Source of the DNA: Deltaproteobacteria bacterium
GTDB taxonomy: Bacteria; Bdellovibrionota; FAC87; UBA2466
Reading direction: 5' to 3'
Assembly: GCA_900299195.1 (NCBI GenBank)
Contig: OMIX01000089.1
Location: 2,892 to 66,891 of the forward strand
Length of the DNA: 64,000 nt
Shown here: positions 6,923-25,665 of the stretch, one piece after another
Position numbering within the stretch: the first letter of the stretch is position 1
Layout: each line of letters starts with the position of its first letter
Notes under the pieces: generated by a model
Databases searched by the model: none
Seen by the model: the letters and a program-made list of their open reading frames with translations, nothing else
What the model was told of the DNA's origin: nothing
Translations under genes and position numbers: made by a program

Positions 6923-7648
6923 ATGTCAGCCAAAACCCCTTATTCGGGACGAATAAAAATTTTCTCTGATGGTGCAGATAAACAAGCCATGTTGGAAATG
7001 AATCAAAACCCTTTGGTTCAAGGGCTTACCACTAATCCAACTCTGATGAAAAAATCTGGCGTGACCGATTATGTTCGCTTTTGCAAAGAGATTTTGAATG
7101 AAATCAAAGTAAAGCCCATCTCTTTTGAAGTGTTTGCAGATGACTTTAAAGAAATGAAAAGACAGGCACTCGAAATCGCAAGTTGGGGTGAAAATGTTTA
7201 TGTCAAAATTCCTATCACCAATTCTGAAGGAGAATCTTCTTTAGGTCTTATCAATGATTTGAGCCAGTCGGGAGTTAAACTTAACGTGACGGCCGTTTTA
7301 ACTTTGGAGCAGTCTTGGGGAGCTTGCCAAGCCCTTAAGGGTGGCGCCCCTTCCATTCTATCTGTGTTTGCAGGTCGAATCGCAGATACTGGCCGTGATC
7401 CTCTCCCTCTCATGCAAGCTTCTTTAGAAATGTGTTTATCGACCGATAAAAACATCGAGCTTTTGTGGGCTAGCTCACGAGAAGTCTTAAATATTGTTCA
7501 AGCCGATCAGATGGGTTGCCACATTATAACCGCCACTAATGATCTGATTAAAAAAATGGCCCAGTTTAACAAGGATCTTTCTCAGCTCAGTTTAGAAACA
7601 GTTCGAATGTTTAAATCAGATGCAGAAAGTGCAGGATTTTCTCTATGA
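6923..7648 (+). CDS. transaldolase-family enzyme (Fsa/TalC-like short form)
   Basis: 'GLTTNP' motif, Schiff-base lysine context 'VYVKIP', 'FAGRIADTGRD' motif; translationally coupled (ATGA) to the downstream SIS gene. Confidence 0.75.
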   Translation: MSAKTPYSGRIKIFSDGADKQAMLEMNQNPLVQGLTTNPTLMKKSGVTDYVRFCKEILNEIKVKPISFEVFADDFKEMKRQALEIASWGENVYVKIPITNSEGESSLGLINDLSQSGVKLNVTAVLTLEQSWGACQALKGGAPSILSVFAGRIADTGRDPLPLMQASLEMCLSTDKNIELLWASSREVLNIVQADQMGCHIITATNDLIKKMAQFNKDLSQLSLETVRMFKSDAESAGFSL

Positions 7649-8244
7649 CCTCATTTTCTGAAAGTTACATTCAAGAAAGTATTTCTATTTTAAAAGATCT
7701 TAACTCGCGTGAGATCGAAAATATGGCCCAGGGTTTAGGAAGAGTGAGAGATCAAGGTGGACGTCTTTTTATTCTTGGAGTCGGCGGTTCTGCCGGTCAC
7801 GCAAGTCATGCAGTCAACGACTTTAGGAAAATATGCGGTTTTGAATCCTATTCCCCTACCGACAATGTTTCAGAACTCACAGCAAGAGTGAATGACGAAG
7901 GTTGGGACACCTCGTTTTCGGAGTGGCTTAAGGTATCAAGACTCTCTTCTAAAGATGCTGTGTTGGTTTTTTCAGTTGGCGGTGGAAACCGAGAAAAAAA
8001 TGTATCTGTCAACTTAGTGAAGGCTCTAGAGCTTTCTCAACAAGTAGGTGCTAGTATTTTTGGGATTGTAGGAAAGGATGGCGGATTTACTAAAACCGTA
8101 TCTGAAAGTTGTGTCATTATTCCCTCTGTTTCCTCAGAAAGAATCACGCCTCACACAGAAGGATTTTGCGCTTTAGTATGGCACCTCTTAGTAAGCCATC
8201 CCGCACTGAAGAAGACGGCAACCAAATGGGAATCGGTCAAGTAG
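7645..8244 (+). CDS. SIS-domain sugar-phosphate isomerase, phosphoheptose isomerase (GmhA)-like
   Basis: 'LGVGGSAGHASHAVNDF' matches the GmhA 'GNGGSAADAQH' region; 199 aa. Confidence 0.7.
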   Translation: MTSFSESYIQESISILKDLNSREIENMAQGLGRVRDQGGRLFILGVGGSAGHASHAVNDFRKICGFESYSPTDNVSELTARVNDEGWDTSFSEWLKVSRLSSKDAVLVFSVGGGNREKNVSVNLVKALELSQQVGASIFGIVGKDGGFTKTVSESCVIIPSVSSERITPHTEGFCALVWHLLVSHPALKKTATKWESVK

Positions 8245-8251
8245 TCGTTCC

Positions 8252-9241
8252 ATGGGGTATCGAGTAGGCATTATCGGAGCTGGCCTTATCGGAAACAAAA
8301 GGGCTAAAGCTCTTCGTTCTGAAGATAGGTTAGTAGCTGTTGCGGATCTCTCTCTTGAAAGAGCCCAATCCCTAGCTGAAACCCACCAAGCCCAGGTGGA
8401 ATCCTCATGGGAAAATCTCATTGAAAGAGCTGACATTGATGTTGTCATCGTGGCCACCTCAAATAATGCTATCCCCCTTTGTGCCGCCAGGGCTCTAAAA
8501 AACAAAAAAGCTATTTTGATTGAAAAACCCGGGGGAAGAAATCCTCAGGAGTTAAAAGGACTACTTGAGCTAGAAAAAGAAACTCAACAAGTGGCTAGAG
8601 TAGGCTTCAATCATCGGTTTCACCCGGCCCTACTCAAAGCCAAAAACATGATCGAAGAAGGTGCCATCGGAGAGATCATGTACTTAAGAGCTCGTTACGG
8701 ACATGGAGGGAGAATCGGCTACGACCAGGAATGGCGAGCTAATCCAGAAATCTCAGGTGGGGGAGAACTTTTAGATCAAGGGGTTCACTTGATCGATCTT
8801 TGTCGATGGCTGGGGGGTGAATTTCATTTGGAGTACGGTCGAGTTCACACTTTTTTTTGGAACATGCCCGTTGAAGACAATGGATTTCTTCTTTTAAAAT
8901 CTCCAGATCAAAAAAGGTTTGCGCATCTTCATGCAAGCTGTACCGAATGGAAAAACATTTTCGATTTTGAGGTTTTTGGTAAGAAAGGGAAACTCCAAGT
9001 GTGGGGGTTAGGTCGAAGTTATGGAACTGAGGAACTTCGTTTTTACAAAGTAAAACCTGAAATGGGAGTTCCTGACTTCTTCGTAGACTCGTTTCCTGAA
9101 GAAGATCATTCTTGGGAACTAGAATGGAAAGCTTTTATTGATTCTCTAGAAGGGAAACCCTCTTCAATCAGCACCCTTCAAGATGCTTATCAAGCCTTAG
9201 ACATCGTCTATAAAGCCTATCAACAATCAGGGAATCGCTAG
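8252..9241 (+). CDS. Gfo/Idh/MocA family NAD(P)-dependent oxidoreductase
   Basis: N-terminal Rossmann motif 'GIIGAGLIGNKRAKAL', 'IEKP' motif, C-terminal dimerisation domain. Confidence 0.8.
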   Translation: MGYRVGIIGAGLIGNKRAKALRSEDRLVAVADLSLERAQSLAETHQAQVESSWENLIERADIDVVIVATSNNAIPLCAARALKNKKAILIEKPGGRNPQELKGLLELEKETQQVARVGFNHRFHPALLKAKNMIEEGAIGEIMYLRARYGHGGRIGYDQEWRANPEISGGGELLDQGVHLIDLCRWLGGEFHLEYGRVHTFFWNMPVEDNGFLLLKSPDQKRFAHLHASCTEWKNIFDFEVFGKKGKLQVWGLGRSYGTEELRFYKVKPEMGVPDFFVDSFPEEDHSWELEWKAFIDSLEGKPSSISTLQDAYQALDIVYKAYQQSGNR

Positions 9242-10996
9242 TTCCTGAATTTGCTCAAAAAACTTTTCGTCCCACAAGTAATTAGGATCGTAGGGATAAC
9301 TTACCATGGACATTATTCGACGATAATAATCTTCTTCTTCTCGTGTTCCTCTGATTTGAGCTTTTATCGGCTGACTATCTTGAGGAAGACTTTCTAAAAT
9401 ATCTTCTAACCCATCATAAATTTTGGGCACTTTGAAAAGTTGCGGAGACCGGAAAAGTGGAAAGAAAGATACTTCCGAAGAGATAGCGCTTTCAATCACG
9501 GCTGAGGAATCATTACAAATACCGACATAGGCATAACCATCTGAGGGATAATCCTTAGCATAAAGCTGGGCCTCTTTGCGAATTCGTCTTAAGTAAAGTT
9601 CAGCGTATCGAGTTGCCTTTTTGATGATGGCTCTATTTTGAGGAGAATTATCAAAAATCTGAAACCGATGGGCTAGGCCGGTCCATTGAGGCCTTTCCTC
9701 GTCAAATTTCGGGAAAAACCCTACCCCGCTAATACCCAAGAAAAAATTCACCCGAGCATTAACGACAGGTCCCGTCACTTGCCAAACAAATTGGGAATGA
9801 GGGGCGGGTAAAAGCAATTCATCACCTGACATCGATTGGATTTGAGTTTTAAACCAAACGGGCCATCGAATATATTTTTCCCCTCTTGCGTAAGATAGAA
9901 AATTCGCAAAGGTTCTCTCATCTCGTAATTCAATGTGATGCCCCGTAGCCCACAAGAGTTCCAAAAACTCGTTCAACTGGGTCACTTTCATTCGTTCGTT
10001 GCCTTCAAAAGGAAAAGATAGCTCATACCCTTTTTGCTCAGCTAGAGCGGTCATAACTGAACTTAAAGCTAAATTTTGAGCCATCATCTTTAAAGGGACC
10101 GATTCTGAGACAAAATGGCCGTAACCGATATTGGGTAATTTGGGATCAACAGCCTGCAATTTTGGATAAGAAGTAAACTCATTACTTGCAATGACATCTT
10201 CCCACTGAGCAGGTAAGAGACTGTTTTCAGAACCTGCTTTCTTCTTTCCGATAAACTTAGATAAATAGGGTCTTAGGAGATTCAATTGATTGACCGAAGG
10301 TAATGTTGGAAATCGGGCTAGAGCTTTTCCATCTTTTTTTGAGAGAACTTGGGTGACTTGACTCACCAGCTTTTGCATTTCCTCTCCAGGAACTGTGTTC
10401 AGCTTCAAAAACTGTGTGAGTTTTTCTGAAAAAACTCTAAGTTCCTCAGGCTGGAGCCCTCGAATAAACTCAGCAAGAGATAATTCAGGACGACCACACC
10501 CCGCTACGCACTCCACGTTCCATAAATCATGGCTCTTAGGAACCACTAAAAGGTAGTTACCGCTCTTTTCAAGTTCGACATGATAAATGAGCTGCTTTTT
10601 AGAGGAACTGGCTCCAGGAGATACCTCTTTAAAAAACCTCTCTTTGTGGTCCGATTCTTTTTTGATTAAAATGTGAGACGTTTTGCTTTCATCGATAAAA
10701 TCTTTGGAAGGCACCACCTTGATTTTTAGTCGGGTATTGCCGAACGAATGATATCGATAGGAGACTTGGATATCTTCAGGAAAATTCTTTTGATTGAGAA
10801 CTAAATTAAAATCTAGAGGGAATTGAAGCTTTGGTTCACCTCTATCTAAGCTATCGGCCCACAGAAGGGAACCACTCAAAACGAAAGTGAATGCGAAAAT
10901 AAAAAGACGATACGCCTTAGGTATCCCAAGCCTCAAAAACACGACTGACCTCCTGAAAAGCAAACGCAAATTAAGGCATTTGCTGCATCGGGTCAA
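9227..10996 (-). CDS. hypothetical exported/membrane-anchored protein (589 aa); downstream partner of the Cys/Arg-rich peptide gene
   Basis: N-terminal hydrophobic anchor; no recognisable catalytic motif; 13-nt gap to the upstream small gene. Confidence 0.5.
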   Translation of the reverse strand: MTRCSKCLNLRLLFRRSVVFLRLGIPKAYRLFIFAFTFVLSGSLLWADSLDRGEPKLQFPLDFNLVLNQKNFPEDIQVSYRYHSFGNTRLKIKVVPSKDFIDESKTSHILIKKESDHKERFFKEVSPGASSSKKQLIYHVELEKSGNYLLVVPKSHDLWNVECVAGCGRPELSLAEFIRGLQPEELRVFSEKLTQFLKLNTVPGEEMQKLVSQVTQVLSKKDGKALARFPTLPSVNQLNLLRPYLSKFIGKKKAGSENSLLPAQWEDVIASNEFTSYPKLQAVDPKLPNIGYGHFVSESVPLKMMAQNLALSSVMTALAEQKGYELSFPFEGNERMKVTQLNEFLELLWATGHHIELRDERTFANFLSYARGEKYIRWPVWFKTQIQSMSGDELLLPAPHSQFVWQVTGPVVNARVNFFLGISGVGFFPKFDEERPQWTGLAHRFQIFDNSPQNRAIIKKATRYAELYLRRIRKEAQLYAKDYPSDGYAYVGICNDSSAVIESAISSEVSFFPLFRSPQLFKVPKIYDGLEDILESLPQDSQPIKAQIRGTREEEDYYRRIMSMVSYPYDPNYLWDEKFFEQIQELAIP

Positions 10997-17777: not shown

Positions 17778-19562
17778 ATGAACTCAAAAACACCCTTTTT
17801 GGTCTTTTACATGGGATTAATGACTCTGGCCCCGACTGGAACTTTGATTGCAGACCGCAGCTCTTCTCGCTGGGATAGACTAGAAAAGCAACTTAAAGAA
17901 GATTCCCATGACCCTGATTTCCCACAAAGAGTCAAAGAGCTTTCAGACTTTCTTAAGAAAACCCAGCGCCCTTCCTCGAAACAAAAAAACTCAAAAGATG
18001 CCCAAGATTGCGATTGCGAGCCAGAGTCTCTAAAGTCTCCGTTTCACAACCCAAAAACAGCAGATTTGAAACCTCACAACTCTTTAATTACGAATGCCTG
18101 CTTCGATTGTCACTCTTCCCCCAACAGTGGTTTTAAGCTAACTCCATGGATTGATGATAAACAGGAATGGGAGCGAAGACTCAAATCTACGACTGCAGAG
18201 GAAAAACTTGAAGCGGAGAAATTATTAGGTCAGCTTTATCGAACTTTGGTTGATGGAAACAACATGCCTCCTGCTAGCGAATCCACCCTTCGACAACAAT
18301 TTAAAAAACATCCGAACCATGCAACTTTTGTTTCATTTATCAAAGAAAAATTTGAACAACTGCCGCAAAATGCAGTCAATACTCAAACAAGAAAAGCTGC
18401 TTCCAATCGGGTATCAGTCATGGAAGAAAAACTTGAAAACCACTACCGCAGTCTATTACCGAAAGTATCAAGTCAAACGCTGAACAACTTGTTTTCCGAC
18501 CCTAACCTTATTTTTATGGATGAAACTCACTTGGTGGCTGGTTATCAAGATCCAAGCCCCAAGGCAATGGGAGAAAGAACGACAACTTTAGGTTTTAAGG
18601 GTGCGGGTTTTGCCAAAGATGCACCCTATTTGGATAGCAAGGGACATTTAAAATTATGGACGACAGGGTTTGGAGTGGATCAAAGCCCCAACCTTAAACG
18701 GTTCCACTTTTTACAACTTCCCCAAAATGAAATGGGCGAACTTCAAAAGATCAAGGTCTCAAGCCGAAGATCAGCGTCTCCAGATGACGGTATTGTTTAC
18801 GATTGGAAATTTCCCTTGGGAACCGTTTCTGGAGAAGTGATCGCTAGTGTAGACTCTGAAGGCAAAGAGCATGTTCTGGAAGTTAGATTACGAACGAAAG
18901 ATAATTCAGAAGGCCCCTGGGGTGCAGATATTTTCAGACCTTATCCCACCAAAACTATTTTAATGGATGAACTCCTGAAAATCTCTCAAAGCAATAGTCC
19001 GCTTGCATCCGAAGCGGACAGGGTGATGAAAGAGCTTAAACTTCCAGGAAGATTAACGCCACAAAGCTCCGGAATGCACGGCTACCAGAGAGGCGAACTC
19101 AATTCCGATGGTGGCACAGAAGTCTTGCCTGAAATGTCTGAAGCCTTAACAAAAAGATTACTTCAAGTCCCCTTTCAATCCTCACTCGGATCTGAATGGG
19201 ACAGAAATGAAAAAGTTAAAGCCTTTGGGGCAACTTCCGACCAACCTTTTAGTATCGTGCCTCAAAATAACACTGAGGGAAGTGTGCAAGTGGGGCGTGA
19301 AAGTTGCGGACGCTGTCATAAAAACAGTAACACACCCATCAGAGATTTTTTCAATCCCAACCACCCCAAATATTACTCTTCAATTGTGGCTTATGGAAAT
19401 ACCCCAGGCAGCGATCAGCAATTACGTTTCCACCCGTTTGACCAGGAATTGTTTAAATGGTTTGGAAATGACACCTACGAAAAAAAAATCGGAAAAGCGG
19501 ATAACCGAGAGTTTAATCCAGCACTCAAACCTATTTTGGAAATACTTCCGTCCAAAAAATAG
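17778..19562 (+). CDS. secreted protein with two c-type heme-binding motifs (putative diheme cytochrome/peroxidase-like)
   Basis: Signal peptide; two CxxCH motifs ('CFDCH' and 'CGRCH') about 400 residues apart. Confidence 0.5.
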   Translation: MNSKTPFLVFYMGLMTLAPTGTLIADRSSSRWDRLEKQLKEDSHDPDFPQRVKELSDFLKKTQRPSSKQKNSKDAQDCDCEPESLKSPFHNPKTADLKPHNSLITNACFDCHSSPNSGFKLTPWIDDKQEWERRLKSTTAEEKLEAEKLLGQLYRTLVDGNNMPPASESTLRQQFKKHPNHATFVSFIKEKFEQLPQNAVNTQTRKAASNRVSVMEEKLENHYRSLLPKVSSQTLNNLFSDPNLIFMDETHLVAGYQDPSPKAMGERTTTLGFKGAGFAKDAPYLDSKGHLKLWTTGFGVDQSPNLKRFHFLQLPQNEMGELQKIKVSSRRSASPDDGIVYDWKFPLGTVSGEVIASVDSEGKEHVLEVRLRTKDNSEGPWGADIFRPYPTKTILMDELLKISQSNSPLASEADRVMKELKLPGRLTPQSSGMHGYQRGELNSDGGTEVLPEMSEALTKRLLQVPFQSSLGSEWDRNEKVKAFGATSDQPFSIVPQNNTEGSVQVGRESCGRCHKNSNTPIRDFFNPNHPKYYSSIVAYGNTPGSDQQLRFHPFDQELFKWFGNDTYEKKIGKADNREFNPALKPILEILPSKK

Positions 19563-20941: not shown

Positions 20942-21013
20942 GAAGCCCCCTCAGAAAGTGAACATGAAACTCTATTATATTAGCTACGTTAGGGGCTCTC
21001 AAGTAGCCATTTC

Positions 21014-22471
21014 TTAAAGGTTCAAATCCTCAACGCGGGACGAGAGACTGCGAAGAAAATCTTCTAACGCAGCTATTTCATGTTCACTCAAATTCAATGG
21101 CTTTAGCGTTTCCTCTCTAAAACCTACTCCAGAATGAGTCTCCATTTTGTTGTAGTGCTCCAGGACTTCCCTTAAAGTCTTCAATCTACCATCTCTCATG
21201 TATGGAGCAGTCTCTGCTACATTTCTTAGAGTCGGGGTTTTGAACGAACCAATCGCCTCTGGAGTTTCACTGTCCAAGAAATTGAGATCCCGACAGCTTT
21301 CGCTTTTTTGTCTTGAAGAATCTTTCAAAAATATTCCTTGGCAATTAAATCGGTCTTTTTTGACGGTCAACACACCTAAACTTCTCCCTAAATCAAACGG
21401 AGCCTGGCTTTGCGGAAGTCCAATATTGTGAAATTGATTGTCTTTAAAGTAGGGACCACTGTGACAAACATGGCAGGCCCCTTTTCCTAAAAAGATTTGA
21501 AACCCTAGAAACTCAGAGAAATTGAATTTCTCACTAAAATGAACTCTGGGGTCCGGATTTGAACTCTGCATCCACCTGCGGATAAATTGATCGAAAGCAG
21601 AATCTCTGGCAACAATGCCCTTTTCAAAGGCTTCAAAAGCCAGTCCAACGTTTGAGAAAACCCTATCTAACTCAAATCTTTGTTCACGATTCATTCTCCA
21701 GTAGTTAACTGATAATACATCTCCTTTTTGTGGAGATTGATTTCTTAATTTCTGGCGGAACTGTCGGATTTGCTGGGGTGAAAGTGTCAATTCATTCGAG
21801 CCGATTTCAGAGAGCAACTTTGGATTATCTGCTGAAACCATCGTATTTCTCACTACCCCATCAGAAAATTGAGGGCGTTCCCGCAAGGGACGCGCTTTAA
21901 AAGGGAGTGCCTTTTCCAATATTTTTGGAAAGGGGCCAAAAAGATTTTCGTAATCACTACGGGAGTTGTTTAAAATCCAGAAAGCTAATTCGGAACGAGT
22001 CAACCCCTGTTCACCCTCATCCTCAATGGGATTCAACGATTGTGCCGCCAACGAATCGGTGCGACCATCCCAGTAAAACCAAAAACTTGAAAAACTATTG
22101 ATGATAGTTGGGGTATTACGATCTCGTTGAGTTAAACCCTGTGCAGTAGTTTTACCATCCGTAAAGGATAGTTCTGGTTTATGACATGTCGCGCACGAAA
22201 TTTTCCCATTCTTGGATAAGCCAGTCTCGAAAAATAATTTTCTACCCCAATGAGCTAGTTCCCGATCTCTAGGGGTCAACTCGGGATCTTGGAAAACAAA
22301 AAACTGAGCCAACTTCCTAAGTTCGTTATCTGCCAATGGCTTGTTACCCATGGCGTCCCTTAACAATCTAGCCTGCTCTTTGGGAATCATGATGTACCGC
22401 CTGATGCCCACCATCCCAAGGACAATCAAAATCCATAAAAATAAAGTCAGCGAAAGTTTTTTAGAAATCAT
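21014..22471 (-). CDS. diheme cytochrome c peroxidase (CCP/MauG family)
   Basis: Signal anchor; two CxxCH motifs ('CATCH', 'CHVCH'); length and spacing typical of bacterial CCP. Confidence 0.85.
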   Translation of the reverse strand: MISKKLSLTLFLWILIVLGMVGIRRYIMIPKEQARLLRDAMGNKPLADNELRKLAQFFVFQDPELTPRDRELAHWGRKLFFETGLSKNGKISCATCHKPELSFTDGKTTAQGLTQRDRNTPTIINSFSSFWFYWDGRTDSLAAQSLNPIEDEGEQGLTRSELAFWILNNSRSDYENLFGPFPKILEKALPFKARPLRERPQFSDGVVRNTMVSADNPKLLSEIGSNELTLSPQQIRQFRQKLRNQSPQKGDVLSVNYWRMNREQRFELDRVFSNVGLAFEAFEKGIVARDSAFDQFIRRWMQSSNPDPRVHFSEKFNFSEFLGFQIFLGKGACHVCHSGPYFKDNQFHNIGLPQSQAPFDLGRSLGVLTVKKDRFNCQGIFLKDSSRQKSESCRDLNFLDSETPEAIGSFKTPTLRNVAETAPYMRDGRLKTLREVLEHYNKMETHSGVGFREETLKPLNLSEHEIAALEDFLRSLSSRVEDLNL

Positions 22472-22887
22472 TTGTTATCAATGTTTAAAGGAGTTTCAAT
22501 TCGAGTGGTCCCTGTTTTATCCTTAATCAAAAACTGCAGTAACCAATTTCCCGGCATGTGAAACCTGACACCCTCCACCCGATACTCCAGCCTCGAAATT
22601 TTAATCACTTTGGCCTTAGTTACCATTCCATGGTTATGCTGGGGCATTCTGGCATCAAAGGTAAAATCGAGCACCTCCCCCGCCTGTTTCTCAATAGGAA
22701 GCAATGAAACTATCCATGTCGTATGCCGATTTAATTGAAATAGTTCAGCACCTTTTTCAGCTGCCTTGATAGATATTTGAAAGTTGGGAGTCCTCCATTC
22801 ATAAGCCAACCCCAGAGACGAAAAAAAACCAAAACTCATTATCCAAAGGCAACTGTAGCGGAAACAATTCAAAGATTTTTTCATCAT
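22468..22887 (-). CDS. small periplasmic His/Met-rich protein, putative metal-binding partner of the peroxidase
   Basis: Signal peptide; 'MPQHNHGM' and 'FHMPGNW' motifs; stop overlaps the CCP start (ATGA coupling). Confidence 0.5.
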   Translation of the reverse strand: MMKKSLNCFRYSCLWIMSFGFFSSLGLAYEWRTPNFQISIKAAEKGAELFQLNRHTTWIVSLLPIEKQAGEVLDFTFDARMPQHNHGMVTKAKVIKISRLEYRVEGVRFHMPGNWLLQFLIKDKTGTTRIETPLNIDNK

Positions 22888-22919
22888 AGTAATGATAATA
22901 TATCAGTCAGGATCTTAAG

Positions 22920-23978
22920 ATGACAATTCTACAAAAGAACAATTACCTGATTCGGTTTATTTGTTTTATATTCACATCGCTCTTTGCCTCATCAGCCCTT
23001 TCCAGTGATGGGCCTCAAAATAGTGGCCGTCTTCAATTGAAGGCCTCTCAGAACCACCAAGTCGAAGCTATCCTCCAAGTAGATCGGAAAGCGCTTCAAG
23101 AACTTTTTTCAACAGCTAATACAGAAAAAGCGGCTGAGTTTCTGAATTTCTTTTGGGTCAGTTCGCAAGAAGCTATCTGTCCAATGGCCTCCCCGTCTTC
23201 GTTGGCTAATGAAAATACTATCTCAACTACATTTATTCTGAATTGTCCTAAAGCTCCAGAACAACTTAAAATTCAACTCACCCAACTTGAATCACTGCCT
23301 AAGGGGTTCTCCCTAGGAGTAAGAACAAACTTTGAGCATTTTGTTTTGGATATTGATAATACCCAAAAAGAAACTTTTTTAAGTCCTTTTCAAATATTTT
23401 TTCGATCAGGTCTTTCGATATTTAGCTTTTTGGGAGCCCATTCCCAAGGATCACCGTTGGCTCTCTCACAACTTGGACGCCCGTTTCCGCTCTATTTTGG
23501 TGGGCTCAGTATTTTACCAGTGGGAATTTGGTGGCTTTTATTAGTGGCCGCGATTGGTGTATCAAATTTGAAATTTAAGCAAAAAGTATTAGCGGTAGGA
23601 ATGGCTATTTTTTTCTCGGGTTGGGTAGCTTACTTCATTTTGTTTTCTCAAATGTCACTCAGACTTCTTTCTGTTAACCAAATTAGTTTTAGTTACTTGG
23701 CCTGCATTTCCTATCTCACCTTTTTGAGTTTTCGAACCCCAACTGAGCAACAAAAGAAGGGGTGCCTGTTTTTGTTGATCGTACTTTCAATTTTTAGTGG
23801 ATTTGAATTTAGCCTGATGTTGAGATGGCTTGAAGGAAACCGGACAGTTCCTCTGGGAATTTGCATCTCGAGTTTTTTTGCTGGGCTCACACTCAACACC
23901 GCTATTCTCATGACTGCTTTTCTTATTTTAGGGTTTAGTCTTTATTCAGCGATAGCCTTGGCTTTTAAACTCATGTGA
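22920..23978 (+). CDS. hypothetical polytopic membrane protein with N-terminal periplasmic domain
   Basis: Signal peptide followed by a soluble domain of about 150 aa and at least 6 predicted TM helices. Confidence 0.45.
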   Translation: MTILQKNNYLIRFICFIFTSLFASSALSSDGPQNSGRLQLKASQNHQVEAILQVDRKALQELFSTANTEKAAEFLNFFWVSSQEAICPMASPSSLANENTISTTFILNCPKAPEQLKIQLTQLESLPKGFSLGVRTNFEHFVLDIDNTQKETFLSPFQIFFRSGLSIFSFLGAHSQGSPLALSQLGRPFPLYFGGLSILPVGIWWLLLVAAIGVSNLKFKQKVLAVGMAIFFSGWVAYFILFSQMSLRLLSVNQISFSYLACISYLTFLSFRTPTEQQKKGCLFLLIVLSIFSGFEFSLMLRWLEGNRTVPLGICISSFFAGLTLNTAILMTAFLILGFSLYSAIALAFKLM

Positions 23979-24057: not shown

Positions 24058-25665
24058 TCAGGGGGTAGTGCTGCTCTTCTTAAAAATTAAGGAACGACTG
24101 CTGTTGTTTTTTATAAAATGATTCCCCTCAAAAGGTAATAAAGGTGATAATAAATTGAACGGACTAAGTCTTAACTCAATGGAATTGGCGGTCTCTCTGT
24201 TGCCAACGAGATAACGGTCTTTTTGATCTAAAAATAGAGCAATTCTTCCCGTATAAAAATCATAACTACCGCCTCGAAAGTCTTTGGCTGGCCAAAAGGA
24301 TTCGGTATGAATCATTCGTCCCACAAAATTCAATGGAGAAAATGGATTTTCCAAGTTGGAAGGTATTTTCTCAGCTGCGACTCCCACGTTAATTAACAAA
24401 TTATCAAAAGTATATGTACCGGAGAGAGACCCCACTGTAATTTTGTCGGTTGGAAGTTGAGGAAGTTTTGATTTCTGAAAGTAAAAAGTTCCCACCCTCC
24501 CAAAAAGTAGTGAATACCAAACCCCCTCGATAAAATCCTCATTAGCATTCGTAATTTCTAAGACCGCATCCATCTCGTTCACTTCAGTTAATGTGGGTTT
24601 GGCTAAGACAAAATGATTTGAATCTTCGGATAAAAAAACGGGGTCGTAGCGGTAAGTGAGAGCTTCTTGAGATTTAAAATCTCCAAAATAAAGTCTAAAC
24701 AAAGTTGAAAGCCCTATGGGTCCACCTTCGGTTTTTGGAGGCACTATAAAAAAATCTAAGTCAGCTGCTTGATACTCATTAAGCAACTCGTGATGAACAT
24801 ACCCTATGTAAGCGCCCTCCAACTTTCGAGGCTCGATAGTTCTTCTTTGGGAATGCTGGGGAAATTCAGAAGCGGTTGCGAAAAGTTGGGTATGAACCGA
24901 TGCATCCTCACTGGAAGTTTTTTTGTACTGACACGAACCACAGGTCATCCCAGATTCATTAATCAGACAATGCTGATTTTCATACCTACCAAAGAGATCT
25001 AGATTTTGGGTGTAGAAATTATAGGCTCCTGAGAAAAACAAGTTACGAACACAGTAATTGGTTTCCGTACATTGATTTGGGTTTTCAACTCCTATCTCGC
25101 CCACAATTTCATAGTCTGAAAAGGGATGGCCCGTTTTAGTCGTTTCTTGAATACTTCGATAAGTATAGAGCTGAAGCTTTTCTTTTTTGCCTGAGCAAAC
25201 TCCTTCATATTCTCCCCAAAGGGCATCTATCAGGGGATATTTCAGAGCCACTTTTCCATCTTTTCTTAAAATAAGTTCAGGGTGATCCGTAGTGAAGCTC
25301 GTTCGCAAAGTTCCTTTGAGCTCTTCTTCAGAAAACTTAGGAAAGGAAACACTAACCTCTTGATTGATTTGGTCAAAGACTAGCCAATCTCCATGAAGAT
25401 GAGCTGTATCAAAGTGAAAAGAAACATACTCCCGGCTTTTTAAATCACCAAAATAGAACTTGAGAAGCCCTAACCAACTGGAAGGCACTTCAGATTGCGG
25501 ATTAGCTACCAAATCCAAAGTGACATATTGGTCCCTCTGAATCGAATGATGACGAAGGACTCCAGTATATCGAAGTGAAGGAAGAGACGCTCCGGGAGAG
25601 GCAATAGTGAGCAACAATCCTAAAATAAATGATAGTTTGAATTGTTTTTGGAACGTCATTCTCAA
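24058..25665 (-). CDS. hypothetical secreted protein with internally duplicated domain (535 aa)
   Basis: Signal peptide; two homologous halves ('LLKFYFGDLKSREYVSFHFD' / 'LFRLYFGDFKSQEALTYRYD'). Confidence 0.5.
   Translation of the reverse strand: MRMTFQKQFKLSFILGLLLTIASPGASLPSLRYTGVLRHHSIQRDQYVTLDLVANPQSEVPSSWLGLLKFYFGDLKSREYVSFHFDTAHLHGDWLVFDQINQEVSVSFPKFSEEELKGTLRTSFTTDHPELILRKDGKVALKYPLIDALWGEYEGVCSGKKEKLQLYTYRSIQETTKTGHPFSDYEIVGEIGVENPNQCTETNYCVRNLFFSGAYNFYTQNLDLFGRYENQHCLINESGMTCGSCQYKKTSSEDASVHTQLFATASEFPQHSQRRTIEPRKLEGAYIGYVHHELLNEYQAADLDFFIVPPKTEGGPIGLSTLFRLYFGDFKSQEALTYRYDPVFLSEDSNHFVLAKPTLTEVNEMDAVLEITNANEDFIEGVWYSLLFGRVGTFYFQKSKLPQLPTDKITVGSLSGTYTFDNLLINVGVAAEKIPSNLENPFSPLNFVGRMIHTESFWPAKDFRGGSYDFYTGRIALFLDQKDRYLVGNRETANSIELRLSPFNLLSPLLPFEGNHFIKNNSSRSLIFKKSSTTP

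Follow-up and report, generated by a model that had tools for sequence, protein, structure and literature searches.

A gene pair in the 64-kb window (the whole stretch of DNA analyzed) encodes a small secreted protein and a MauG-type diheme enzyme, and most likely represents a protein for copper trafficking in the periplasm together with a dedicated enzyme that oxidizes it. The best specific explanation, to which we assign a probability of roughly 40%, is that the enzyme oxidatively matures the metal site of a copper-carrier partner by modifying a side chain and that the partner then delivers copper.

The small gene lies on the minus strand at 22468..22887 and encodes 139 amino acids, of which ~111, about residues 29-139, make up the mature part; its N terminus, MMKKSLNCFRYSCLWIMSFGFFSSLGLA/YE, looks like a Sec signal peptide. 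The enzyme gene (21014..22471, minus strand) encodes a 485-aa member of the CCP_MauG superfamily with an N-terminal hydrophobic anchor or signal. The two reading frames share a 4-nt stop/start overlap, ATGA (22468..22471, minus strand; context AAC AAA TGA / ATG A), which implies that the small gene and the enzyme gene are translationally coupled. Both frames and their overlap are exactly as an earlier note on this DNA had described them, and the two motifs that it had picked out in the small protein are also present. The public gene call for the small protein starts at M17 and gives 123 aa; we favor the 139-aa start because a homologue that is 58% identical (P0002) likewise begins MKK. In the NCBI annotation the enzyme is a “cytochrome-c peroxidase” and the small protein a “hypothetical protein” only. 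That the small ORF is a genuine gene, not one arising by chance, is shown by an exhaustive HMMER search with its product, which recovered 1289 cluster representatives at E ≤ 1e-3 (58 of them at E ≤ 1e-10), and by the retention of both motifs across relatives. The exhaustive search was needed, as a word-index protein search had yielded only two relatives.

Both motifs occur in 137 of the best 150 of these 1289 representatives, and in 116 of the 137 their spacing is exactly 29 residues. The first, M81-P-Q-H84-N-H86-G-M88 (22624..22647, minus strand), forms a predicted metal-binding loop after the strand at residues 74-81; 101 sequences show no variation at M81, H84, H86 or G87, and conservation of P82 and M88 reaches 90% or more. 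The second, H110-M-P-G-N-W115 (22543..22560, minus strand), provides a second predicted ligand loop and a Trp, with M111, G113 and W115 invariant and H110 at least 90% conserved in the same number of sequences. We infer that the copper site is built from M81-x2-H84-x-H86-G-M88 and the H110-M111 loop, beside W115. Where Trp115 lies with respect to the His/Met loops is predicted from strand periodicity only, and because it alternates with hydrophobic residues (WxLxF), Trp115 may simply be a core residue. There is no cupredoxin-type Cys, and 60 of the best 150 family members lack Cys altogether.

Against the YtkA-like profile PF13115, the small protein scores 18.8 bits (E 0.0026; gathering score 25.9), and 56 of the 58 aligned relatives match the profile at E ≤ 0.01, the best at E 5.5e-10. 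It has the Ig-like beta-sandwich fold common to solved YtkA-domain members and falls within the YtkA/CtaK/CrdA Ig-like copper-protein fold as a member of its HxH subfamily. In Bacillus subtilis, CtaK (YtkA), a His/Met protein outside the cytoplasm, has been linked to the provision of copper for the CuA center of caa3 oxidase (PMC13344008; PMC9145763). It and the YtkA domain of B. subtilis YcnJ belong to the Pfam superfamily PF13115, into which the small protein probably also falls, and relatives of the small protein lie within or beside caa3 operons. The small protein nonetheless differs from CtaK in forming a distinct subfamily with MPxHxHGM and HMPGxW motifs, below the Pfam cut-off, and in carrying an SPase I-type signal, whereas CtaK is a lipoprotein; neither PMC13344008 nor PMC9145763 mentions a diheme partner for CtaK (the word “peroxidase” occurs 0 times in PMC9145763). 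In Helicobacter pylori CrdA (PDB 9ll2), the Met-rich loop MMPEMPGM, proposed as a Cu(I) site (PMC9182242), aligns with the MPQHNHGM loop of the small protein. CrdA relies on Met only and has no His (PMC9182242), whereas the small protein has three His positions (H84 and H86 invariant, H110 at least 90% conserved). CrdA is listed with CrdB, HP1328 and HP1329, not with a diheme enzyme, and it too has a counterpart of Trp115, although it is described without a diheme partner (PMC9182242).

The enzyme scores 119.1 bits against PF03150 (CCP_MauG; gathering score 25.6). Of its two c-type heme-binding motifs, CATCH (C93-H97; 22181..22195, minus strand) has C93, C96 and H97 invariant in 72/72 partner-linked enzymes, and CHVCH (C333-H337; 21461..21475, minus strand) is kept in 70 of the 72, the remaining ones being truncated sequences. 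In a sequence alignment to MauG residues 256-300 and 6e1c, Tyr440 (21152..21154, minus strand) falls at the position of MauG Tyr294 (LEHYNKM versus ILFY294NKY) and is predicted to ligate the second heme axially; this position is Tyr in 68/68 partner-linked enzymes and in 116 of 118 homologues. MauG-type Tyr/His heme ligation, a point on which the earlier note had asked for a check, is accordingly predicted from sequence. Tyr440 takes the place of the Met in the N. europaea sequence AVETMG, which is the canonical His/Met ligand of bacterial cytochrome c peroxidases (the Met of the high-potential heme, Met275 in P. aeruginosa numbering). The N. europaea distal His (in SIGH) aligns with Leu113 of the enzyme, and most partner-linked enzymes have Leu, Ile, Met or Val in that column. 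With Tyr at the ligand position and no distal His, we rejected the enzyme as a canonical bacterial cytochrome c peroxidase.

The best PDB sequence match of the enzyme is 6e1c (E 8e-23), which we take to be MbnH. Scores against the NCBIfam models are, however, far below the cut-offs for both MauG (TIGR03791, 134.7 bits; cut-off 443.85) and MbnH (TIGR04039, 131.8 bits; cut-off 362.85), and other partner-linked enzymes behave in the same way, with 143-174 bits for ten of them against the MauG model and 118-181 bits against the MbnH model. These cut-offs rule out true MauG or MbnH orthology, and the enzyme therefore belongs to a separate, unnamed MauG/MbnH-like clade.

As in MbnP/MbnH, and in MopE or CorA with their diheme partners in methanotrophs, a MauG-type enzyme is encoded here next to a secreted protein of copper-binding type. 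MbnH turns a Trp of MbnP, located in a conserved WxW motif, into kynurenine beside a His/Met copper site (PMC11951088). The window enzyme has the same ligand-position Tyr, and its partner has conserved His, Met and Trp. The partner is nevertheless of unrelated fold and sequence (YtkA/CrdA-like, 139 aa), a WxW motif is absent from it and present in only 1 of the best 150 family members, methanobactin genes are absent from its surroundings, and the linkage of the module is to cox and Sco instead. We rejected MbnP as the identity of the small protein on the grounds of no sequence or fold match, no WxW and the wrong size. Of the MbnP/MbnH-like pairing that had been suggested, the MauG/MbnH-like character of the enzyme is upheld and the likeness of the partner to MbnP is not. 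The enzyme also resembles MauG, a His/Tyr diheme enzyme whose Tyr294 corresponds to Tyr440 within a conserved YNK motif and which acts on a partner protein from its own cluster, but the window partner, a small protein of Ig fold, is no quinoprotein precursor such as that of methylamine dehydrogenase. No recognizable mau or methylamine dehydrogenase (MADH) genes were found among the neighbors scanned with Pfam and NCBIfam or among those called on the near-identical contig L006.

We surveyed the neighborhoods of the best-scoring 80 of at least 576 loci, drawn from 80 species-representative genomes that span at least seven phyla, and found that the diheme gene was directly adjacent to the small gene in 75 of the 80, so that the co-occurrence on which the earlier note had made its pairing depend is amply documented among these loci. 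In 63 of the 75 adjacent pairs the diheme gene lies downstream on the same strand, in 9 the genes are divergent and in 3 they are fused. Among the 63 same-strand pairs, 28 have the identical 4-nt overlap and 10 more have a 1-nt overlap, making 38 stop/start overlaps. Carriers include Reyranella sp. CPCC 100927, which is cultivable, and MAG-derived Ferrovibrio and Oligoflexus loci. caa3 oxidase operons adjoin 14 of the same 80 loci, and in nine Oligoflexales-type loci the small gene heads a same-strand run of cox genes with the enzyme divergent. One relative of the small protein is fused to the CuA chaperone Sco, at a locus with no diheme enzyme within 6 kb, and in a cultured Pseudobacteriovorax the enzyme lies next to cox and the gap contains no small gene; each partner is thus able to occur without the other. 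Because the pair recurs in many phyla and in some cases is fused or has cytochrome oxidase genes as neighbors, it looks like an uncharacterized copper-handling module. We found no description of it in the literature searched, which covered YtkA-like proteins (PF13115) and CtaK, MauG-like enzymes with copper, and MauG with CuA chaperones.

A divergent gene on the plus strand (22920..23978) encodes a 352-aa membrane protein with a signal peptide, a periplasmic beta-sandwich domain and ~6 transmembrane helices, which makes the pair a triad, though solely in this clade. The membrane protein had no match in Pfam or NCBIfam, and a fold search alone was informative: the periplasmic domain is anglerase/ZrgA-like, and its closest structural matches include the zinc proteins PA4063 and ZrgA. 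It differs from the Anglerase-HupE/UreJ-2 permeases in lacking a Pfam PF13795 match, a conserved His in the transmembrane region and an N-terminal His after the signal peptide, its mature end being S/A-D-G-P-x-N-x-G. Two downstream genes were rejected as members of the unit, one of 446 aa (weakly metallo-beta-lactamase-like) and one of 594 aa with two CxxCH motifs, as both are conserved only in near-identical contigs. A promoter-like site (11/12 matches) lies between the enzyme gene and the 446-aa gene, and such sites are no commoner in the region than in shuffled sequences. No cox genes, second YtkA-like gene or second CCP were found within the 64-kb window.

We propose a two-gene periplasmic module, of three genes in this clade, in which the small protein would serve as a copper-binding carrier. 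By analogy with MauG, MbnH and BthA, reaction of the diheme enzyme with H2O2 would yield a bis-Fe(IV)-type oxidant, to be spent on the partner protein and not on peroxide detoxification. The enzyme would modify a side chain that belongs to, or lies next to, the His/Met/Trp cluster of the partner and so mature its metal site, following on an unrelated fold the logic by which MbnH converts a Trp of MbnP to kynurenine beside its copper site. The matured partner would hand copper to periplasmic cuproenzymes, chiefly the CuA center of caa3 oxidase where the genes adjoin cox operons, and the divergent membrane protein would probably capture metal or move it across the inner membrane. Several observations sit less easily with such maturation. 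Trp115, shared with CrdA, may be a mere core residue; a permanent redox partner would account for the fusion to the enzyme better than would a substrate that is modified once; in the nine Oligoflexales-type loci the small gene travels with the cox run and the enzyme does not; the Sco-fusion and Pseudobacteriovorax loci each have one partner without the other; and the adjacency figure covers the best 80 of at least 576 loci, while the window itself has no cox genes.

The fusions and the tight coupling would fit a permanent partnership, in which the two proteins form a redox pair without covalent modification: the enzyme with H2O2 would oxidize partner-bound Cu(I), or the copper protein would be a dedicated electron donor, the pair acting as a peroxide-driven cuprous oxidase or peroxidase that sets the Cu(I)/Cu(II) state for CuA assembly or clears periplasmic Cu(I) and H2O2. 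With its His3/Met3 ligand set the partner could hold copper in either oxidation state (PCuAC has a His2Met2 Cu(I) site), and the genomic linkage to cox operons, Sco and DsbD-like genes also agrees with such a role, but the family lacks a cupredoxin-type Cys, with the Cys-free members counted above, and we know of no precedent for a diheme enzyme that oxidizes protein-bound copper. The Tyr-ligated relative BthA combines peroxidase activity with formation of bis-Fe(IV) (PMC6405878), and CuA assembly requires copper from both Sco and a second chaperone, according to PMC6669012; against this, poor peroxidase activity is general among MauG-type members (PMC11892367). We consider a redox pair of this kind rather unlikely, if still a serious contender.

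It is much less probable that the two are independent periplasmic proteins that are merely coregulated, for example under oxidative or copper stress, as an ordinary H2O2-scavenging peroxidase and a CrdA-like copper buffer. Either protein does occur alone in some genomes, and the NCBI labels would suit such an arrangement, but adjacency across at least seven phyla in 75 of the best 80 of at least 576 loci, the 38 stop/start overlaps and the three single-polypeptide fusions argue against it, as do the Tyr (116/118) in place of the canonical peroxidase Met ligand and the lack of a distal His. We give similarly little credence to a partner that binds Zn, Ni or Fe, or that is a non-metal adaptor docking the enzyme onto CoxB or the membrane protein. 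A His-rich HxH...H site would also suit Zn or Ni, the membrane protein domain has zinc proteins among its structural matches, and the Pseudobacteriovorax enzyme stands beside cox without a small gene. The characterized homologues CrdA, CtaK and the YcnJ YtkA domain, however, all handle copper (PMC9182242; PMC13344008; PMC9145763), the invariant Met residues favor Cu(I), and the domain also occurs in fusion with Sco, a copper chaperone.

The value of MauG-type diheme enzymes lies in their ability to oxidize proteins over long range via a bis-Fe(IV) state. Protein substrates have been assigned for MauG and MbnH only, and BthA and many clades are orphans (PMC6405878; PMC11892367). One large orphan diheme clade now gains an obvious candidate partner, in at least 576 species-level genomes. 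Because this candidate, a soluble domain of 110 residues, should express easily, the enzyme-substrate question is directly testable. The pair also extends the YtkA/CtaK family, whose copper chemistry and role in CuA assembly have so far been defined only genetically, by a new subfamily that has its own redox enzyme and a conserved His3/Met3/Trp constellation. Linkage to cox and Sco hints at an unrecognized step in the supply of periplasmic copper to respiratory oxidases. Tentatively, we envisage widespread, unrecognized MauG-type enzyme-substrate pairs in which a protein-derived cofactor (for example, a kynurenine or hydroxy-Trp at Trp115, or a His/Tyr/Met cross-link) would be made in a YtkA-fold chaperone and be needed for loading CuA and possibly other periplasmic copper sites. 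If true, this would be the third independent fold, after MbnP and MopE/CorA, to have a copper site made by a diheme peroxidase, and it would tie MauG chemistry to respiratory oxidase biogenesis.

The pair lies on the minus strand of the window, with the open reading frame (ORF) of the small secreted protein (139 aa) at 22468..22887 and that of the diheme enzyme (485 aa) at 21014..22471, and the tetranucleotide ATGA at 22468..22471 supplies both the stop codon of the small gene and the start codon of the enzyme gene. The positions and the overlap are exactly those read by the earlier note, and the His/Met motifs and signal peptide that it described in the small protein were both seen: MPQHNHGM is encoded at 22624..22647 and HMPGNW at 22543..22560 (both minus), and the N terminus is a plausible Sec signal peptide (MMKKSLNCFRYSCLWIMSFGFFSSLGLA followed by YE). 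Public gene calls begin the small gene at Met17 (123 aa, P0001); the charged n-region is present in the longer form only, and a homologue with 58% identity (P0002) likewise starts MKK. The enzyme has a signal-anchor-like N terminus (MISKKLSLTLFLWILIVLGMVGIRRY) and two c-type heme motifs (CATCH, residues 93-97, and CHVCH, 333-337) and scores 119 bits against Pfam CCP_MauG (cut-off, 25.6). The nearest genome-resolved relatives are in Oligoflexales and Bdellovibrionota. In a ‘Deltaproteobacteria bacterium’ MAG, NCBI labels this small protein ‘hypothetical protein’ and the enzyme ‘cytochrome-c peroxidase’. Sigma-70-like sites just 5′ of the small gene (22897..22926, minus; 10/12 matches, extended -10) and in the gap separating the enzyme from the gene that follows (20974..21002, minus; 11/12 matches) fit a bicistronic unit, yet the regional count of such sites is not above that in shuffles.

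A word-indexed search returned two relatives of the small protein, and an exhaustive HMMER search with a two-sequence profile returned 1289 cluster representatives at E<=1e-3 (58 at E<=1e-10), most of them 120-190 aa long. Alignments of 58 and of 101 members show M81, H84, H86, G87, M111, G113 and W115 to be invariant, with conservation of 90% or more at A79, P82, M88, G106 and H110; both MxxHxHG[ML] and HMxGxW occur in 137 of the 150 best representatives, 116 of which have the exact 29-residue spacing. The small protein itself matches YtkA (PF13115) weakly (18.8 bits; cut-off, 25.9), and 56 of the 58 relatives match this family, with a best E of 5.5e-10. An AlphaFold2 model from the 101-sequence alignment is a confident eight-strand beta sandwich (pLDDT 87.6). 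CrdA was the only PDB sequence matched by the family profile at E<=10, with the MPxHxHGM loop aligned over the MMPEMPGM loop of CrdA and HMPGxW over SMNGTW. CtaK (formerly YtkA), the founding member, is a lipoprotein in which His and Met residues are conserved. When CtaK is lost or carries an H118Y substitution, the CuA-dependent activity of caa3 oxidase is impaired, except where copper is supplied, and YcnJ, a copper importer, has a YtkA domain that is partially redundant with CtaK (PMC9145763; PMC13344008). CrdA has no histidine, and its Met-rich loop has been proposed to bind Cu(I) (PMC9182242). The small protein can therefore be placed in the YtkA/CtaK/CrdA copper-protein superfamily, where it falls into a separate subfamily marked by invariant histidines at three ligand positions.

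The earlier note had suggested an MbnP/MbnH-like pairing, and the part that stood was the presence of a MauG-type enzyme beside a partner. We rejected the identification of the partner as MbnP: it had no NCBIfam match at E<=1, the family profile found no PDB sequence besides CrdA at E<=10, and the WxW motif, which in MbnP holds the kynurenine-forming Trp (PMC11951088), is absent from it and is found in 1/150 family members. Separately, a 923-aa NHL-repeat/SGL-like beta-propeller protein (P0256) carries a C-terminal HxH YtkA-like domain at residues 857-922, and the domain is therefore also attached to other periplasmic proteins.

With each GTDB species represented by one genome, a pattern scan gave at least 576 loci that carry a gene for a relative of the small protein, and adjacency was scored with HMMs of both families in the 80 best-scoring of them. 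Co-occurrence, which the earlier note had proposed as a check, proved strikingly high: a diheme gene is directly adjacent in 75 of these 80 loci. The enzyme is immediately 3′ on the same strand in 63/80, and among these 63, a candidate enzyme start lies within 30 nt in 55, with a 4-nt overlap in 28 and a 1-nt overlap in 10. The two genes are divergent in 9/80, a single ORF encodes both domains in 3/80, and the enzyme was not found in 5/80 (two of the five at contig ends). The fusions, namely, a 500-aa lipoprotein of a Verrucomicrobiales MAG (L022) and two Burkholderiales-type proteins (L062 and L087), run in the order signal, YtkA-like domain, Pro-rich linker, enzyme. Taxa represented among the loci include Oligoflexales, Myxococcota, Planctomycetota, Verrucomicrobiota, Alpha- and Betaproteobacteria, SAR324, Rokubacteria and Bacteroidota. 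Searching from the enzyme side, we found the partner adjacent for the window and for homologues P0004, P0007, P0008, P0017, P0023, P0027 and P0031 and absent beside P0093. We concluded that the pair is conserved, often translationally coupled and occasionally fused.

In a PDB sequence search, the enzyme matched 6e1c (‘di-heme enzyme’, which we take to be MbnH) at 84 bits, the Nitrosomonas peroxidase at 83.5 bits and MauG at ~66-69 bits, placing it about equidistant from the three as judged by sequence. Its NCBIfam scores were 134.7 for MauG (cut-off, 443.85), 131.8 for MbnH (cut-off, 362.85) and 92 bits for the His-Xaa-Ser-system MauG-like model (cut-off, 340), and ten further partner-linked enzymes from different phyla behaved in the same way; these scores indicate that the enzyme is in a separate, unnamed clade. 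Past the conserved PTLRN...PYM(H/R)DG segment, Tyr440 (LEHYNKM) aligns with the Met ligand of the Nitrosomonas enzyme (AVETMG) and also with MauG Tyr294 (ILFYNKY, chain numbering 256-300) and the Tyr of 6e1c (IDIYSE). Tyr occupies this position in 68/68 partner-linked enzymes and 116/118 homologues, a positive answer, at the level of sequence alignment, to the earlier note's question of MauG-type Tyr/His ligation. In the alignment, Leu113 takes the place of the distal His present in the Nitrosomonas enzyme. The Trp of WDG (W134), Q144, P148 and E154 are conserved and align with W, Q, P and E of 6e1c, with the spacing of MauG Trp93, Gln103, Pro107 and Glu113. Arg426 (21194..21196, minus), found in the enzyme and its five closest relatives only, replaces the His of PYMHDG, a position that is His in 111/118 homologues.

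The window contains neither cytochrome oxidase (cox) genes nor a second copy of either family. A caa3-type oxidase operon (CoxB fused to cytochrome c, CoxA, CoxC, CoxD and Caa3_CtaG; full set in 13/14) is present at 14/80 loci, of Oligoflexales and Myxococcota type. At one of them (L013), the small gene immediately precedes coxB in the same orientation, the other cox genes come after coxB, and the enzyme is divergent. In cultured Pseudobacteriovorax antillogorgiicola (L093; GCA_004346105.1, 1777..8449), the enzyme is divergent beside the caa3 cox operon and the 385-nt gap between them has no YtkA-like ORF; thus, enzyme-cox linkage occurs without an adjacent partner. At another locus (L092), P0156 (6001..6972) is a fusion of the HxH domain to the CuA chaperone SCO1/SenC, preceded by a HiPIP gene and followed by two small, weaker paralogues (7001..7372 and 7385..7885), and no diheme enzyme was found within 6 kb. 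Oligoflexia-type loci repeatedly have a gene for a DsbD-like thiol:disulfide transporter at a distance of 1-3 kb from the enzyme (L093, 9185..10978; L094, 9721..11634; L096, 5306..7153; also L015-L018, L080 and L091). Nine loci, most labeled Planctomycetota/Phycisphaerae (L021, L028, L033, L039, L048, L058, L070, L079 and L081), share a large secreted protein of ~759 aa, encoded in L079 at 7582..9861, directly downstream of the diheme enzyme.

In the closest clade (L001-L005 and L010-L012; two genes off in L095), the pair is flanked by a divergent membrane protein, in the window 352 aa at 22920..23978 (plus), with no Pfam or NCBIfam match. Its model, of moderate confidence (pLDDT 68; ~80 over the periplasmic domain), has a signal peptide, a beta-sandwich domain and about six helices. 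Compared with P0272 (371 aa, 93% identical), it lacks 19 residues near residue 340, where an in-frame deletion falls between two FLIL repeats within the final predicted helices. Downstream of the enzyme, the genes of 446 aa and 594 aa are not conserved neighbors of the pair. The 594-aa ORF (17778..19562, plus), seen in near-identical contigs only, has two CxxCH motifs with all cytochrome Pfam matches sub-threshold and may be a novel diheme protein. A 535-aa secreted ORF without a family match (24058..25665, minus) has an apparent internal duplication (..LLKFYFGDLKSREYVSFHFD.. and ..LFRLYFGDFKSQEALTYRYD..).

The pair is a periplasmic YtkA/CrdA-fold His/Met protein with a MauG-type diheme enzyme, in a copper/respiratory-oxidase context. 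MauG, MbnH and BthA all form a bis-Fe(IV) species, and their dye-linked peroxidase activity is generally poor (PMC11892367; PMC6405878). By analogy with the action of MbnH on MbnP, the enzyme might use H2O2 to oxidize its partner and so mature or switch the partner's predicted copper site; this is our preferred reading, to which we give a probability of roughly 0.4. The MbnP copper site consists of Met, His and kynurenine (PMC11951088); the small protein has invariant Met, His and Trp. Against modification of this Trp, however, an equivalent of Trp115 is also present in CrdA, described without a diheme partner, and Trp115 is possibly a core residue because it falls in the WxLxF periodicity of an inward-facing strand. 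The main rival reading, somewhat less probable, is that no covalent chemistry takes place and that the enzyme oxidizes partner-bound Cu(I) or takes electrons from it, which the fusions fit at least as well as they fit modification. In view of the fusions, the overlaps and the invariant Tyr, it is unlikely that these are unrelated proteins that are simply co-regulated.

The pairing is not described in the literature found on YtkA/CtaK, CrdA, MauG, MbnH, BthA and CuA assembly, with prior notice possible in MbnH bioinformatics, and the pair has no name in NCBIfam or the source annotations. We rate a MauG-type enzyme with a dedicated neighboring partner as a known kind of system and the partner fold and the link to oxidase copper supply as new. 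The module is a lead rather than a demonstrated mechanism; it is widespread and cheap to test, and it would give a large orphan enzyme clade a function.
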